40,804 nt of DNA from a virus. Its lineage: Duplodnaviria; Heunggongvirae; Uroviricota; Caudoviricetes. Under the pieces are notes generated by a model. It ran no database searches. It was not told the DNA's origin and worked only from the letters and a program-made list of their open reading frames with translations. A program made the translations under genes and the position numbers. Below, in pieces: positions 1,455-5,662 of the stretch. The DNA lies in IMG/VR virus record IMGVR_UViG_2687453522_000003, positions 1 through 40,804 of that record. One strand, written 5' to 3'. Within the stretch, counting starts at the first letter, position 1. Each line of letters starts with the position of its first letter.

Positions 1455-1492
1455 CGCAGCACGTTCTTGCATACGACGTGGCTGCGGTTTCA
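1455..1492. repeat. Hairpin repeat copy A (AACCGCAGCACG-TTCTTGCATACGACGTG-GCTGCGGTTTCA)
   Basis: Near-identical to 5620..5662 in direct orientation; about 13-bp stem with one bulge. Confidence 0.7.
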
Positions 1493-1641
1493 ACTCCCGC
1501 AAGCTCCACCAATCATGATTGAACGGTGTAAGGACAACACCAACGAAAACAGGAAGTTAGCAGTCTCAGCAGGACACCGACCAGACGGTGAGGAGACAAA
1601 AAAGGATACGCAAAGGAGCCGCGGCTCTCGAGTGACACAAA

Positions 1642-1669
1642 AGCCCGCTTATGCGGGCTTTTTGTTTTT
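1642..1669 (+). terminator. Rho-independent terminator-like hairpin (AGCCCGC-TTAT-GCGGGCT followed by TTTTTGTTTTT)
   Basis: GC stem plus T-tract read directly; preceded by a second palindrome GAGCCGCGGCTC. Confidence 0.6.
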
Positions 1670-1739
1670 CCCTTAAGTTCCTAGCCGCTTATCTATAACT
1701 ATGGAAAAATGTTAACCCTGACTGTATGTTAACAAAGGG

Positions 1740-2954
1740 ATGTATATGTCGGTTTTTCATAACTGGCTGCTTGATATCGCAAGCGGGAATTACTTTATCT
1801 ACATCAAACGCCTTTCTGCAAACGACACAGGCGCAACAGGTGGCCATCAGGTCGGACTTTATATCCCCTCAAATATCGTTGAAAAGCTTTTTCCATCTAT
1901 CAATCATACTCGCGAACTGAACCCTTCAGTCTTCCTTACTGCGCATGTATCATCCCATGATTGCCCTGATACCCAAGCACGCGCAATTTATTACAACAAC
2001 CGTTATTTTGGTAAGACCCGAAACGAAAAAAGAATTACGCGCTGGGGGAGAGGAAGTCCATTACAGAACCCTGAAAATACAGGAGCCCTCACAATTCTTG
2101 CTTTCAGGTTAAACGAACAGAACACTGACTGTTCCGAGGTAGATATATGGGTCTGCGTCAATCCCGATGAAGAGGATCTCATCGAGTCTGCTATTGGCGA
2201 AATCATACCTGGAACCCTAATTTTCGGCCCAGCCGGACAAATTTTGGGCGGATTGTCTCTTCAGCAAACTCCAGTAAATCATAAATATGTTATTCCTGAA
2301 GACTGGAAGAAGCGTTTTCCTTCTGGAAACGAAATTATTCAATATGCTGCTGGCCATTATGCTAAAAACTCCAAGGATCCAGATGAGCAACTGATTGACC
2401 GTCGGCGTGTCGAGTATGATATTTTTCTACTCGTCGAGGAATTACATGTTCTTGATATTATTAAGAAAGGATTCGATTCTGTAGATGAGTTTATTGCATT
2501 AGCCAACTCTGTCAGTAATCGACGTAAATCAAGGGCAGGTAAATCACTTGAACTTCACCTAGAGAAGCTTTTTATCGAGCACGGACTACGGCATTTCTCC
2601 ACTCAGGCAGTTACTGAAGGTAATAAAAAACCAGATTTCCTGTTTCCTTCAGCAGAGGCATATCATAACGCTGAATTTCCTGTAGAAAACTTACGTATGC
2701 TGGCAGTAAAGACCACCTGCAAAGATCGCTGGCGTCAGATACTGAATGAAGCAGATAAAATCCATCAGGTACATTTATTTACACTGCAAGAAGGTGTTTC
2801 TTCAGCACAATACCGAGAAATGAAAGATGCGGGTGTCAGACTCGTTGTACCATCAACTTTACATAAAAAATACCCAGAAGCAGTTAGAGAAGAATTAATA
2901 ACGCTCGGAGCATTCATTACTGAGCTGATAGAACTTTACACTGAACTATCATAG
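1740..2954 (+). CDS. Type II restriction endonuclease, EcoRII-like (predicted CCWGG specificity)
   Basis: 404-aa ORF convergent with a Dcm/M.EcoRII-family methyltransferase; length and arrangement match the EcoRII system as I recall it; second ATG at 1746 has better spacing to the AAGGG ribosome-binding site. Confidence 0.7.
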   Translation: MYMSVFHNWLLDIASGNYFIYIKRLSANDTGATGGHQVGLYIPSNIVEKLFPSINHTRELNPSVFLTAHVSSHDCPDTQARAIYYNNRYFGKTRNEKRITRWGRGSPLQNPENTGALTILAFRLNEQNTDCSEVDIWVCVNPDEEDLIESAIGEIIPGTLIFGPAGQILGGLSLQQTPVNHKYVIPEDWKKRFPSGNEIIQYAAGHYAKNSKDPDEQLIDRRRVEYDIFLLVEELHVLDIIKKGFDSVDEFIALANSVSNRRKSRAGKSLELHLEKLFIEHGLRHFSTQAVTEGNKKPDFLFPSAEAYHNAEFPVENLRMLAVKTTCKDRWRQILNEADKIHQVHLFTLQEGVSSAQYREMKDAGVRLVVPSTLHKKYPEAVREELITLGAFITELIELYTELS

Positions 2955-2988
2955 GCTGACTCCCGGCTTAAAAGGCCGGGAGGTGTTC

Positions 2989-4422
2989 TCAAGGCTGCCC
3001 AGTCTTACCAGCATCAGCAGAAACAGCTTTGAGGATATAGGGTTCCAGAAGTCTGGCAACGGCTTCAAATACTGGCACCACAACGGAGTTACCGAACTGC
3101 CGATATGACTGAGTATCTGAAACCGGAATACGGAATGGTTTCCCTCCAGGTTTTTCAAACCCCATAAGGCGTGCGCACTCTCGGGGAGTCAGCCTGCGTG
3201 GTCGACGAGCCTGGTTACTCTCATTCATAAAGTCAGCCTCTCCCGTTGCCATATCCCAACCACGATCAATAAGAATTTCTGATCCGTCTTTGTGATATCT
3301 GGCAGAAAGTGTGCGTGCAATGCTTTCCTTATTCTCAGGATTGACCAACCCAAAGCCAAAACCATTCCCCTTGGCTGCATGCTTTTTGGCGTAGTTATAA
3401 AGGTACTCCCATAGTTTTGGCGTAAGTATATATTTACTGTCGACTACAGGCTCCAGCAATTCACCAAATGATGGGCGGTGTTCCGGATAAAAACGACTGA
3501 TATCACGCAAGGTAAACCCCTTGTGAATATTCAGATCTCGTCTAAATCCGACCAGAACAATGCGTTCACGATGCTGAGGCAAAAAATGCTTCCCATCGAT
3601 AATCTTTGGATCGTTTTTTCCCATTTCTGCAGCATCGGCAACTTCGTAGCCCAGCTCGTCAAGGGTCTCCATAATGACTTTGAAAGTTTTACCCTTATCA
3701 TGGCTCTTCAGATTTTTGACATTTTCCAGCACAAAAATTGCCGGTTTTTTTGCTCGTATAATACGTGCCACGTCAAAAAAAAGTGTTCCTTGTGCTTCAC
3801 ATTCAAAACCATGCGCACGACCAAGTGAGTTTTTCTTACTAACACCAGCAAGGCTAAATGGCTGGCACGGGAACCCCGCAAGAAGCACATCATGATCCGG
3901 CACATGCTCATCAATATATGCATAAGCATCCGTTTCCAATATATCGGTTTTATCACTCAGCGTGACTTCCCGAATATCGAGATTGAATTTATGCACCTGT
4001 TCATCGTTAAACCAGTTGGCCTTGTATGTACGCACAGCATCTTTATTCCATTCACTGGTAAAAACACACTGGCCTCCAATGGCCTCAAAACCTTTCCGTA
4101 TCCCTCCAATTCCAGCAAATAAGTCAATGAAGCGGAAAGCATATTCCGGATGGTTTGCAGGTGGTTCTGGTAGCATCTTACGCAGAAGAGACTCTTCTAC
4201 TGAAGTCAACGATTTTGGTAAACACTTGCCATTAATCCAGCGGTTAATGGTTTCACGGCTCCACTCATTTCTTCCGACTTTTCTCAGTAATTCAGCCACA
4301 TACTTCTGATCATAGATTTCCAGCACTTTCTCGATAAGCTTTTTATCATTTTCCTGTCGCAGCTTTTCTTCCGCCTCGGCTTCCTTCAGCAGATGCTGTG
4401 CCAACACTTCAAATTCAGACAT
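2989..4422 (-). CDS. DNA-cytosine C5 methyltransferase, Dcm/M.EcoRII family
   Basis: Motifs FAGIGG (motif I), FPCQPFS (catalytic Cys), ENVKNL, QFGNSV; near-colinear with E. coli Dcm from memory; start set at internal ATG (MSEFEV...) preceded by GGAGGA, giving 477 aa; the track ORF extends to 4464. Confidence 0.9.
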
Positions 4423-4825
4423 AATTCCTCCAAGGGGTCTAATGGGTGAAACTTTATCACTCATTTAACCCAGAAGGAAATGTTTTATCTGGATATTTAA
4501 ACAGTGACTGCAACGTAATCTAGCACTGGTGATGCTTTGTTAGGCATAGAGAATCATTCTATATACGACTAATGACAGAAAAACAGCAGACAAGTAGTTT
4601 GTTCATAAATTAACGCATACTACGTGCCTACGGTTTTCGAGACCGGTCCAATCATCAAACGAAACATAAAATTAGCTCACATTATGAGGAAAAGTATCTT
4701 TTTTGTACTATGTAAATTCAAAGGCTTAGCCTCATTTCTCCGATGGTTTTCTCAACACTACTGGTTGTGAGCCCTTGCAATGTTCATTAATATACGTCTC
4801 ACAAATAATTCATAGATATTGCAAA

Positions 4826-5551
4826 ATGGATATTACTGAGTTTCCTTCTGGAGTAATTGAACACCTTGGCTGGTATGTATACCGATTGATTGATCCGAGG
4901 GACGGAAGCACCTTCTATGTAGGGAAAGGCAAAGGTAACCGCGTATTTGCCCATATGCGTGGTGAAGTGGCAGCGACTGATGATGACGAGTTACTGAGCA
5001 ACAAGCTAAAGCAAATTAGAGAAATAAGGTTAGCAGGACTTGAGGTTATCCATGTCATCCATCGACACGGAATGACTGATGAAAAGACGGCATACGAAGT
5101 TGAAGCAGCACTTATTGATGCCTACCCTGGGTTAACGAATATCATGAATGGTGCTGGCAGCAATGAATTCGGCGCCGCGCATGTCAAAGAGTTGATAGCA
5201 ACATATCAACCCGAAACCATAACATTTCATCATAAAGCATTAATGATTTCCGTTAACAGAAGTGCAAAGGATTCAGAGCTTTATGATGCTGTTCGATTTA
5301 GCTGGCGCATTAATGTCTCTCGCGCCAGCCAAGCAGAAGTCATTCTTGCTACTGTAAGGGGGATCGTTCGAGGGGTTTTCATTGCTGATAAATGGCTCAA
5401 ATCAACACGTGAAAATTTCCCTACGATGAAATACTGGGACGAGGATCCGGACTTTGAGGCAACACAAAGTTCTCGCTATGGTTTTGAAGGTCGAGAAGCC
5501 TCACCTGAAATAGCAAATCTTTATCTTGGAAAAAAATACCAGATGAATTAA
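4826..5551 (+). CDS. GIY-YIG nuclease domain protein
   Basis: N-terminal [27 protein letters not shown] matches the GIY-YIG pattern (Y-x-Y ... YVG ... R ... H); track ORF starts at an upstream TTG (4775), the first ATG is 4826. Confidence 0.7.
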
Positions 5552-5619
5552 GAAAAAAAGGAGCTATGTCCCCGGTCCGTTACTCACCTAATTTTTGAGT
5601 CTTTAAGTGATAAGCATAA

Positions 5620-5662
5620 ACCGCAGCACGATCTTCTTGCATACGACGTGCTACGGTTTCAT
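5620..5662. repeat. Hairpin repeat copy B, immediately 3' of the invertase gene (probable invertase terminator)
   Basis: AAACCGCAGCACGATCTTCTTGCATACGACGTGCTACGGTTTCA; direct repeat of 1455..1492. Confidence 0.7.

Follow-up and report, generated by a model that had tools for sequence, protein, structure and literature searches.

A terminator-like stem-loop as a putative module boundary for anti-phage defence cassettes in Escherichia prophages

Terminator stem-loops of T4-type phages, known as promoter-early stem-loops (PeSL), recombine with one another and thereby reassort accessory genes between phages (Arbiol et al., 2010; PMC2839356). A PeSL carries a strong early promoter and is found in many copies per lytic phage genome, within a hyperplastic region of non-essential genes. 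Morons, as in the lambda b region described by Juhala et al. in 2000, are reportedly accessory genes with their own terminator that lie between the tail-fibre genes and the phage attachment site (attP). The moron concept is not known to include a shared boundary sequence. Temperate phages also contain defence hotspots, fixed positions at which anti-phage systems are swapped rapidly. How defence systems move so fast between temperate phages is an open question: a 2026 survey of P2/P4 hotspots reasons that exchange by homologous recombination would depend on homologous flanks, which unrelated elements do not share, and leaves the mechanism of exchange open (PMC13586616). The text of that survey contains no mention of a terminator, hairpin or stem-loop. 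The locus considered here lies near the left end of a 40,804-nt stretch of caudovirus DNA (IMG/VR record IMGVR_UViG_2687453522_000003; hereafter the window), where copies of a conserved hairpin bracket a 4.1-kb block that encodes a restriction-modification (R-M) pair and a GIY-YIG nuclease. On sequence comparison, the hairpin appears to be a phage module-boundary sequence, marking joints where anti-phage defence genes would be swapped between phages.

The closest described analogue seems to be the PeSL cassettes. In both, a short conserved stem-loop (a terminator in PeSL, a predicted one here) is repeated at the borders of accessory genes and its copies would recombine. Unlike a PeSL, this hairpin is present in one to three copies in a temperate phage, is located at a convergent junction next to attP, and is found in siphovirus-type as well as myovirus-type prophages. 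No promoter-like site is found in or beside the repeated 41-43 nt; the sole nearby match is on the minus strand, inside the leader that precedes the left copy alone. As with morons, extra genes stand between features that are adjacent in relatives, with a terminator-like hairpin at the end of the unit and at the same map position, but here successive cassette borders are marked by one hairpin family, and the joints lie within the hairpin. The locus also resembles the defence hotspots in being a fixed position with fast-swapped anti-phage systems (here EcoRII R-M and PD-T4-3). The described hotspots differ in phage group and map position, whereas this one has a specific boundary sequence with chimeric joints. 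No description of the hairpin family was found in Rfam, where there is a partial match to CssrB only, or in open-access literature text.

Hairpin copy A (HP_A, AACCGCAGCACGTTCTTGCATACGACGTGGCTGCGGTTTCA) is located at 1452-1492 and copy B (HP_B, AACCGCAGCACGATCTTCTTGCATACGACGTGCTACGGTTTCA) at 5619-5661, in direct orientation. The two are 88.6% identical across 44 columns (BLAST) and differ by 4 substitutions and 2 indels; a repeat search returns an exact 17-mer common to 1464-1480 and 5634-5650, and a 94% 17-mer at 1452-1468 and 5619-5635. The original prediction, which had proposed near-identical direct repeats at these borders, was right about the repeats and their orientation and 1-3 nt off in their coordinates. 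It had also given each copy a stem of about 13 bp, and folding yields 12-14 bp, with energies of -20.0 (plus strand) and -22.3 kcal/mol (minus strand) for HP_A and of -16.3 (plus) and -22.5 kcal/mol (minus; z = -4.75) for HP_B; z ranges from -1.9 to -4.75 across the copies. On the plus strand, HP_A has one bulge and HP_B one C.A mismatch. The last three bases of HP_B (5659-5661) are the stop codon (TGA, minus strand) of the neighbouring invertase gene, where the prediction had put this copy. Next to these two full copies, the only ones that BLAST detects within the window, a half copy (HP_C, GCATACTACGTGCCTACGG) consisting of the loop and 3' arm only is found at about 4616-4636 and forms the boundary between the R-M and the GIY-YIG cassettes. 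The window holds 2.5 copies of a conserved stem-loop of lambdoid and e14/SfV-like prophages of Escherichia and Shigella. The half copy was absent from the earlier prediction, as were the conserved unit of about 184 nt at 1309-1492 and the transfer-messenger RNA (tmRNA) att core after HP_A.

The repeat is not a chance finding, since its hairpin is one member of a large and conserved family. With 49 nt around HP_A as the query, matches are obtained in 142 phage genomes, including lambda, HK97, phi80, Stx phages and Rac; among 5,426 complete E. coli genomes, 5,308 have the hairpin, at a total of 15,741 places. Such abundance might suggest a generic genome-wide palindrome of the repetitive extragenic palindromic (REP) type, or a chance match, unlinked to the cargo, but this explanation is hardly credible: the median is 3 copies per genome rather than hundreds, every hairpin context examined is a prophage, with one position on the phage map, and homology breakpoints coincide with the hairpin. 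An 18-mer from the leader retrieves more than 120 IMG/VR loci, a sample that was chosen via the leader sequence and that under-samples the diversity of left flanks. In species-representative genomes, the apparently genuine matches to this 18-mer (15 of 55 stretches) fall only in Escherichia, Shigella and one Enterobacterales metagenome-assembled genome, which again does not fit a REP-type element; these taxa were read from organism names in the table, and the hairpin itself was unchecked in those loci. The other stretches occur in unrelated taxa and are about as many as the ~35 chance matches estimated for this pattern length in 596 Gb. The original prediction had considered a common genome-wide repeat as grounds against it, and the element is indeed very common, yet it is prophage-specific and marks cargo boundaries.

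The hairpin occurs in most E. coli prophages, and its map position is constant. From the contexts compared, it appears to be the site at which the integration arm (int, often dinI, and a conserved leader of ~100-184 nt) meets a convergent late arm (tail-fibre assembly gene or invertase). The order in HK97 is tfa, hairpin (20941-20985), sib, attP, int; in SKA5 it is int, dinI, hairpin, pin; and in Rac of K-12 the prophage end is followed by the hairpin and ynaM-ydfK-pinR-tfaR. In lambda, the hairpin is found at 24162-24201, between ea47 and ea31. HP_A is an unmixed HK97-type allele, with 100% identity over 45 nt to HK97 20941-20985.

Comparison of the flanks shows where the modules are joined. 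SKA5 has a single hairpin joined straight to the invertase, and in six further loci (L019, L056, L109, L122, L094 and L078) leader and hairpin directly adjoin a pin gene whose invertase is 93-95% identical, so that the single hairpin after the invertase that the original prediction had proposed to look for is present in relatives. Window positions 5634-5680 are 100% identical to two of these empty sites (L019 and L056). Other related phages carry either or both of the cassettes. In AVS0153, the same block of R-M and GIY cassettes, with an identical GIY cassette, joins a lambda-type tfa-stf-lom-J tail, and homology to the window ends at 5659. In an alignment of nine sequences, the 5' arm of the hairpin goes with the left flank and the remainder, loop and 3' arm, with the right one; all six flank combinations are found (leader or GIY 3' flank on the left with pin, lambda-type tfa or an ssrA-like core on the right). 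HP_B is a chimera of two alleles: its 5' arm is of one allele and goes with the GIY cassette, and its loop and 3' arm belong to the resident allele beside pin, a combination that creates the C.A mismatch. Genome-wide breakpoints around HP_B fall at 5619/5621, 5634 and 5659-5661. Where phages are otherwise unrelated, the homology that they share is lost at the hairpin or within it, which bears out the earlier idea of a hotspot, as a recurrent junction beside variable cargo.

The cargo between the hairpins has the content that had been predicted. An EcoRII-like type II restriction endonuclease is encoded on the plus strand at 1740-2954 (Pfam EcoRII-N and EcoRII-C; PADLOC REase_II, 2.7e-233) and its partner, a C5 cytosine DNA methyltransferase, on the minus strand at 2989-4464 (PF00145 and PF18284; MTase_II, 1.2e-229). 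The two genes converge with no hairpin between them, and only weak consensus matches to promoters are found for the cargo. The methyltransferase gene is followed by a remnant of the 3' end of dinI (4590-4618, plus strand; 24 of 29 matches to the dinI 3' end of SKA5) and by HP_C. Relative to SKA5 and locus L085, 78 nt comprising the leader and 5' arm are deleted between the remnant and HP_C. Similarity of 4637-4660 to a second, degenerate tmRNA core was considered, and the alignment is too weak to claim one. The third gene, at 4825-5551 on the plus strand, encodes the PD-T4-3 GIY-YIG nuclease (PF22945; PADLOC PDLC04031, 2.5e-128), which was renamed CMoRE in 2026 as a type IV enzyme cutting DNA that contains 5-hydroxymethylcytosine (5hmC) or glucosyl-5hmC (PMC12923530). 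An A-run at 5533-5539 has seven A in the window and eight in CRE1493, NT1F10, HeN100 and AVS0153; the gene is therefore frameshifted near its 3' end and its C-terminus altered, which reflects either truncation in this allele or a sequencing error in the homopolymer. Without the frameshift, the stop codon would be at about 5597, roughly 20 nt short of HP_B.

The distribution of these genes indicates that the 4.1-kb block is a composite, not one insertion. Three loci (L018, L059 and L032) have leader, hairpin, GIY, hairpin and pin, and no R-M genes. Conversely, L083 has the equivalent of window 1308-4645, with R-M genes and no GIY gene, adjoining a lambda-like tfa. L024 and L067, which likewise lack the R-M genes, begin with the same leader, hairpin, GIY and hairpin, but have no pin: an ssrA-like core comes next, and about 1.9 kb of additional cargo separates it from tfa. 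Among complete genomes, the upstream region of the GIY gene is found in 866 and is linked to the methylase side in only 244. In the GIY cassettes without that link (~620 genomes), homology begins at 4615 or 4628, inside the half hairpin HP_C.

The original prediction had inferred a single acquisition at the hairpin that left a duplicated copy. In its general form, this would be one 4.1-kb element inserted into the hairpin, by a transposition-like or site-specific event with duplication of the target. Direct repeats do bracket the block, and the empty sites do show one hairpin between the same leader and the same pin. Such an event is nevertheless quite improbable. The open reading frames (ORFs) and Pfam matches of the block include no transposase or integrase, the two cassettes occur separately in hundreds of genomes, a third half copy and a dinI remnant lie inside the block, and on the left the block begins with an att core whose attP arm is also that of phage LLS. 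The two outer copies are different alleles, one of them chimeric, and not a target-site duplication; joints within the hairpin are the product expected of recombination within a short shared sequence, which argues against a single insertion with target duplication.

The left edge of the R-M cassette is of a different kind. A tmRNA (ssrA) 3'-end att core occupies 1484-1511 on the plus strand (26 of 28 matches; 28 of 28 in strain NT1F10) and overlaps the last bases of the 3' arm of HP_A. It continues into an attP arm at 1512-1663 that resembles the native downstream flank of ssrA, with 90% identity to the E. coli ssrA-ypjA spacer, and that ends in a canonical bidirectional terminator at 1639-1662 (AAAAGCCCGCTTATGCGGGCTTTT). 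This terminator has weak, sub-threshold Rfam matches to STnc350 and isrK, which are taken as matches to a terminator only. Captured chromosomal DNA was considered as the source of 1512-1663 and rejected: the same arm (90% identity) is found in the free phage LLS (PQ299149) beside an annotated attP/tmRNA pseudogene, in the layout int, attP, arm, cargo, Fin invertase, which shows the arm to be phage-borne. In HeN100 and AVS0153, the position of the core is the end of the real ssrA gene, and the same R-M and GIY block follows ssrA.

Window 1484-1663 is read as a fossil tmRNA-type attP. Like the tmRNA attP of LLS and of islands such as CP4-57, it has a block of ssrA 3'-end identity and a terminator arm of ~150 nt; in this prophage the site is internal, unsplit and without its cognate integrase. 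The fossil reading follows from this position, from the integrase of the window, which is only 25-27% identical to the ssrA-type integrases of LLS and HeN100 (themselves 87% identical to each other), and from the location of the prophage itself at tRNA-Thr. Old att sites would accordingly be able to persist as fossils within a cargo region. In HeN100, the integrase-side attP arm (L008 5752-7230) holds a DarT / NADAR (DarG-like) toxin-antitoxin defence pair where the window has leader and hairpin, and defence cargo is therefore found on both arms of this attP.

These features raise the possibility that integrase-driven accretion was the main route, through attP x attP recombination or tandem ssrA lysogens, decay of the inner prophage and excision from the outer att site, with the hairpins only as passengers of each attP region. 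In many loci, an HP_A-type hairpin abuts a tmRNA core, and these cores are diverged. HeN100 is ~98% identical to the window to the right of the core and unrelated to its left (DarT-NADAR-int instead of leader and hairpin), the dinI 3' fragment at the end of the R-M cassette is what a deletion endpoint in the int-dinI arm of a decayed neighbour would leave, and L024 and L067 have their further ssrA-like core after the equivalent of HP_B. As the main route, this is still unlikely, since it leaves the joints inside HP_B and at HP_C unexplained, where no recognisable tmRNA core follows (weak similarity only). Phages with dusA-type or lambda-type integrases also carry the hairpin, and a cognate integrase is absent from the window. 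Exchange by an integrase, or tandem lysogens at ssrA, more probably acted together with hairpin recombination than instead of it: it probably contributed because the left edge of the R-M cassette is an att core, and the junction of HP_A with that core, together with the dinI remnant, suggests att-core exchange (attP x attP, or tandem ssrA lysogeny followed by decay). On the present comparison, the hairpin route and the att-core route are not separable.

The account that we favour, and consider probable, is that a conserved terminator-like stem-loop doubles as a short stretch of homology through which cassettes are exchanged, with recombination at att cores as an additional route. The stem-loop would be retained by selection in unrelated phages because it terminates or insulates convergent transcription. 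Since selection keeps it in phages that are otherwise unrelated, it would supply 40 nt of shared sequence, and recombination there would swap the flanking DNA between co-resident phages. Phage Rad52-type recombinases work on short, diverged homologies. Cassettes may thereby have been stacked between a resident hairpin and pin, each keeping a hairpin. The first unit of the stack would consist of the thrW att, a 326-aa gene, the leader and HP_A; the second, of the fossil tmRNA-type attP and the EcoRII R-M genes, ending in the dinI remnant and the half hairpin HP_C; and the third, of PD-T4-3, ending in HP_B.

If this account is true, the stem-loop would supply the flanking homology that exchange between unrelated prophages requires, being present in nearly every E. 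coli genome and in lambda-like and e14/SfV-like prophages alike. One and the same EcoRII and PD-T4-3 block is attached through the hairpin to two tail modules that are unrelated to each other, and one of the joints is a visible chimera. The hairpin would also serve as a simple landmark for prophage cargo and offer a testable mechanism of cassette exchange in the best-studied phage group. Against the account, the hairpin was looked for in e14 of K-12 (pinE-mcrA) and is absent, and cargo can therefore adjoin pin without a hairpin. In addition, joints in the hairpin could partly reflect selection for intact genes after illegitimate recombination instead of exchange driven by homology.

Joints inside a structured, covarying hairpin might alternatively point to a crossover site for a dedicated recombinase, either Pin or an integron-like enzyme acting on folded hairpins, with the cargo as its cassettes. 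Cargo units that each end in a hairpin resemble a cassette array, and HP_B touches the pin gene. Several observations make this very improbable. Lambda, HK97 and many prophages of the lambda-like kind carry the hairpin but have no invertase; an integron integrase is absent here, the neighbouring recombinase being a serine invertase; and the ends of the hairpin (AGCCAAC... and ...GGTTTCA) misfit the attC cores RYYYAAC and GTTRRRY on direct reading. Crossover positions also vary, from the 5' arm and the loop to just after the 3' arm and 13 nt beyond, and many members have a T-run typical of terminators.

Across 58 distinct members of the hairpin family, standard pairs are found in 91.7% of stem cells; 1,000 shuffles gave 88.6 +/- 0.4% and at most 90%, all short of the observed value. 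Double compensatory changes occur at three pairs (CG 45/TA 8, AT 47/GC 5 and AT 25/GC 11). The structure of the stem thus appears to be under selection and kept by compensatory changes. At least 6 T within the 9 nt after the stem are present on the int/dinI (plus) strand in 26 of the 58 members (~45%). Given the stem conservation, the T-runs in members and the position between convergent genes, the hairpin is most likely a bidirectional transcription terminator or insulator, and for HP_B, between the convergent GIY-YIG and pin genes, bidirectional termination is plausible. Both full copies have the stable, G+C-rich stem of a Rho-independent terminator (12-14 bp, -16 to -22.5 kcal/mol). Directly after the stem, where a terminator has its U-tract, HP_B reads UUUCAUUUAUCU (plus) and UUUAUGCUUAUC (minus), and HP_A reads UUUCAACU (plus) and UUGGCUGG (minus).

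Other properties speak against a terminator or against the strength of the covariation. The U-tract of HP_A is weak in both directions, the loops of 9-13 nt exceed the 3-8 nt of textbook intrinsic terminators, and a terminator consensus scan that allowed loops of 3-8 nt flagged neither HP_A nor HP_B. Counts of G.U and C.A pairs (31 and 24) indicate no preference for either strand, and a role in RNA is therefore inseparable from a role in DNA. The stem sequence is mostly conserved, its members are related, which inflates the covariation statistics, and the excess of pairing over shuffles is modest. The leader adds a further difficulty: the near-invariance of its last 60 nt exceeds what a terminator requires, and a terminator role does not explain it.

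The only indirect hint that transcripts end at the hairpin comes from chromosome-encoded Shigella sRNA B (CssrB, RF02799), whose Rfam model ends there. The 3'-terminal hairpin of that model corresponds to this hairpin on the minus strand, and HP_A and HP_B match it weakly, at 24.5 and 23.5 bits. These scores are far below the gathering score of 76 and involve the hairpin of ~40 nt only, the other ~140 nt being absent; neither copy is therefore a CssrB gene. A search of the literature on CssrB returned nothing relevant.

HP_A forms the 3' end of the conserved unit at 1309-1492, whose leader (1309-1451, plus strand) precedes it. The unit is 85% identical to lambda 24162-24340 and 95% identical to HK97, and its last 100 nt are common to HK97 and SKA5; it is also found in NT1F10 and about 120 IMG/VR loci. 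The last ~60 nt of the leader (1393-1451; GTAAAATC...CACCAGCC) are near-invariant across phages with unrelated flanks, and may be a small RNA or a protein-binding site. A candidate leader helix (GGCTGG/CCAGCC) shows compensatory change in two cases, along with 11 G.U pairs and 18 A.C mismatches, a weak and mixed support, and RNAalifold on a 120-nt alignment of the leader region gave nothing useful. Coding through the hairpin (ORFs at 1345-1518, plus strand, and 1229-1462, minus strand) was considered and rejected: the frames are not conserved in genomes in which dinI directly adjoins the leader, and indels in the hairpin have lengths that are not divisible by three.

A more far-reaching proposal, which we regard as doubtful, is that the hairpin-bounded units are mobile defence cassettes and that, in addition, the 60-nt leader and hairpin form a prophage small RNA. 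Recombination between two hairpins would loop out a circle of ~4.2 kb with one hairpin and the tmRNA att core. Such a circle could integrate into any co-resident prophage that has the hairpin, irrespective of tail type, or into ssrA if an integrase were provided in trans. The leader and hairpin, for their part, may be a transcript of the dinI 3' untranslated region type, with a role beyond that of a mere terminator.

Many relatives combine the hairpin with another integration module. In L002, L085, L040, L051, L064, L117 and L126, a SKA5-type integrase gene lies by a fragment of dusA (tRNA-dihydrouridine synthase) and is followed by dinI, leader and hairpin. Several of these dusA-side relatives keep a diverged tmRNA-like core after the hairpin, despite their different type of integrase.

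The region as a whole is an e14/SfV-like myovirus prophage with ymfQ, baseplate genes, an invertible tail-fibre segment and pinE, its late genes being on the minus strand. Window bases 1-9000 are matched over their full length at ~100% by three E. coli chromosomes (CRE1493, B20127 and OZ547450). The prophage is integrated at tRNA-Thr (39361-39436), adjoined by the integrase gene at about 38183-39346, and the second att copy lies ~540 bp to the left of the start of the window (thrW att repeat, L001 5457-5510). Base 1 through pin is therefore the accessory arm of the prophage. The gene that borders this arm, at 5659-6249 on the minus strand (5659-6213 with the annotated start), encodes a Pin-type serine DNA invertase (PF00239) and has its stop codon inside HP_B. 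Feature coordinates of locus L001 are one base above its sequence positions (pinE at 11660-12214; ORF stop at window 5659), besides a real 1-nt indel.

The outermost accessory gene, between the thrW att repeat and the conserved unit, is an ORF of 326 aa on the minus strand (1-981), which has no Pfam or PADLOC match. Together, 1-981 and 982-1308 form a second variable slot, as most related genomes diverge to the left of about 1300-1312. NT1F10 carries an ABC-three-component system in the slot left of ~1300, and other relatives carry other genes. A prophage att repeat was sought near 1300, where many genomes lose homology, and none is found there, the tRNA-Thr repeat being the one ~540 bp left of the window; position 1300 is therefore another cargo boundary. 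Further left, in CRE1493 (L001 1-5296), a second island, which encodes a tyrosine integrase of its own as well as an HsdM-family methyltransferase and a zinc-ribbon protein, lies directly beyond the duplicated tRNA-Thr fragment; this arrangement indicates tandem elements at thrW.

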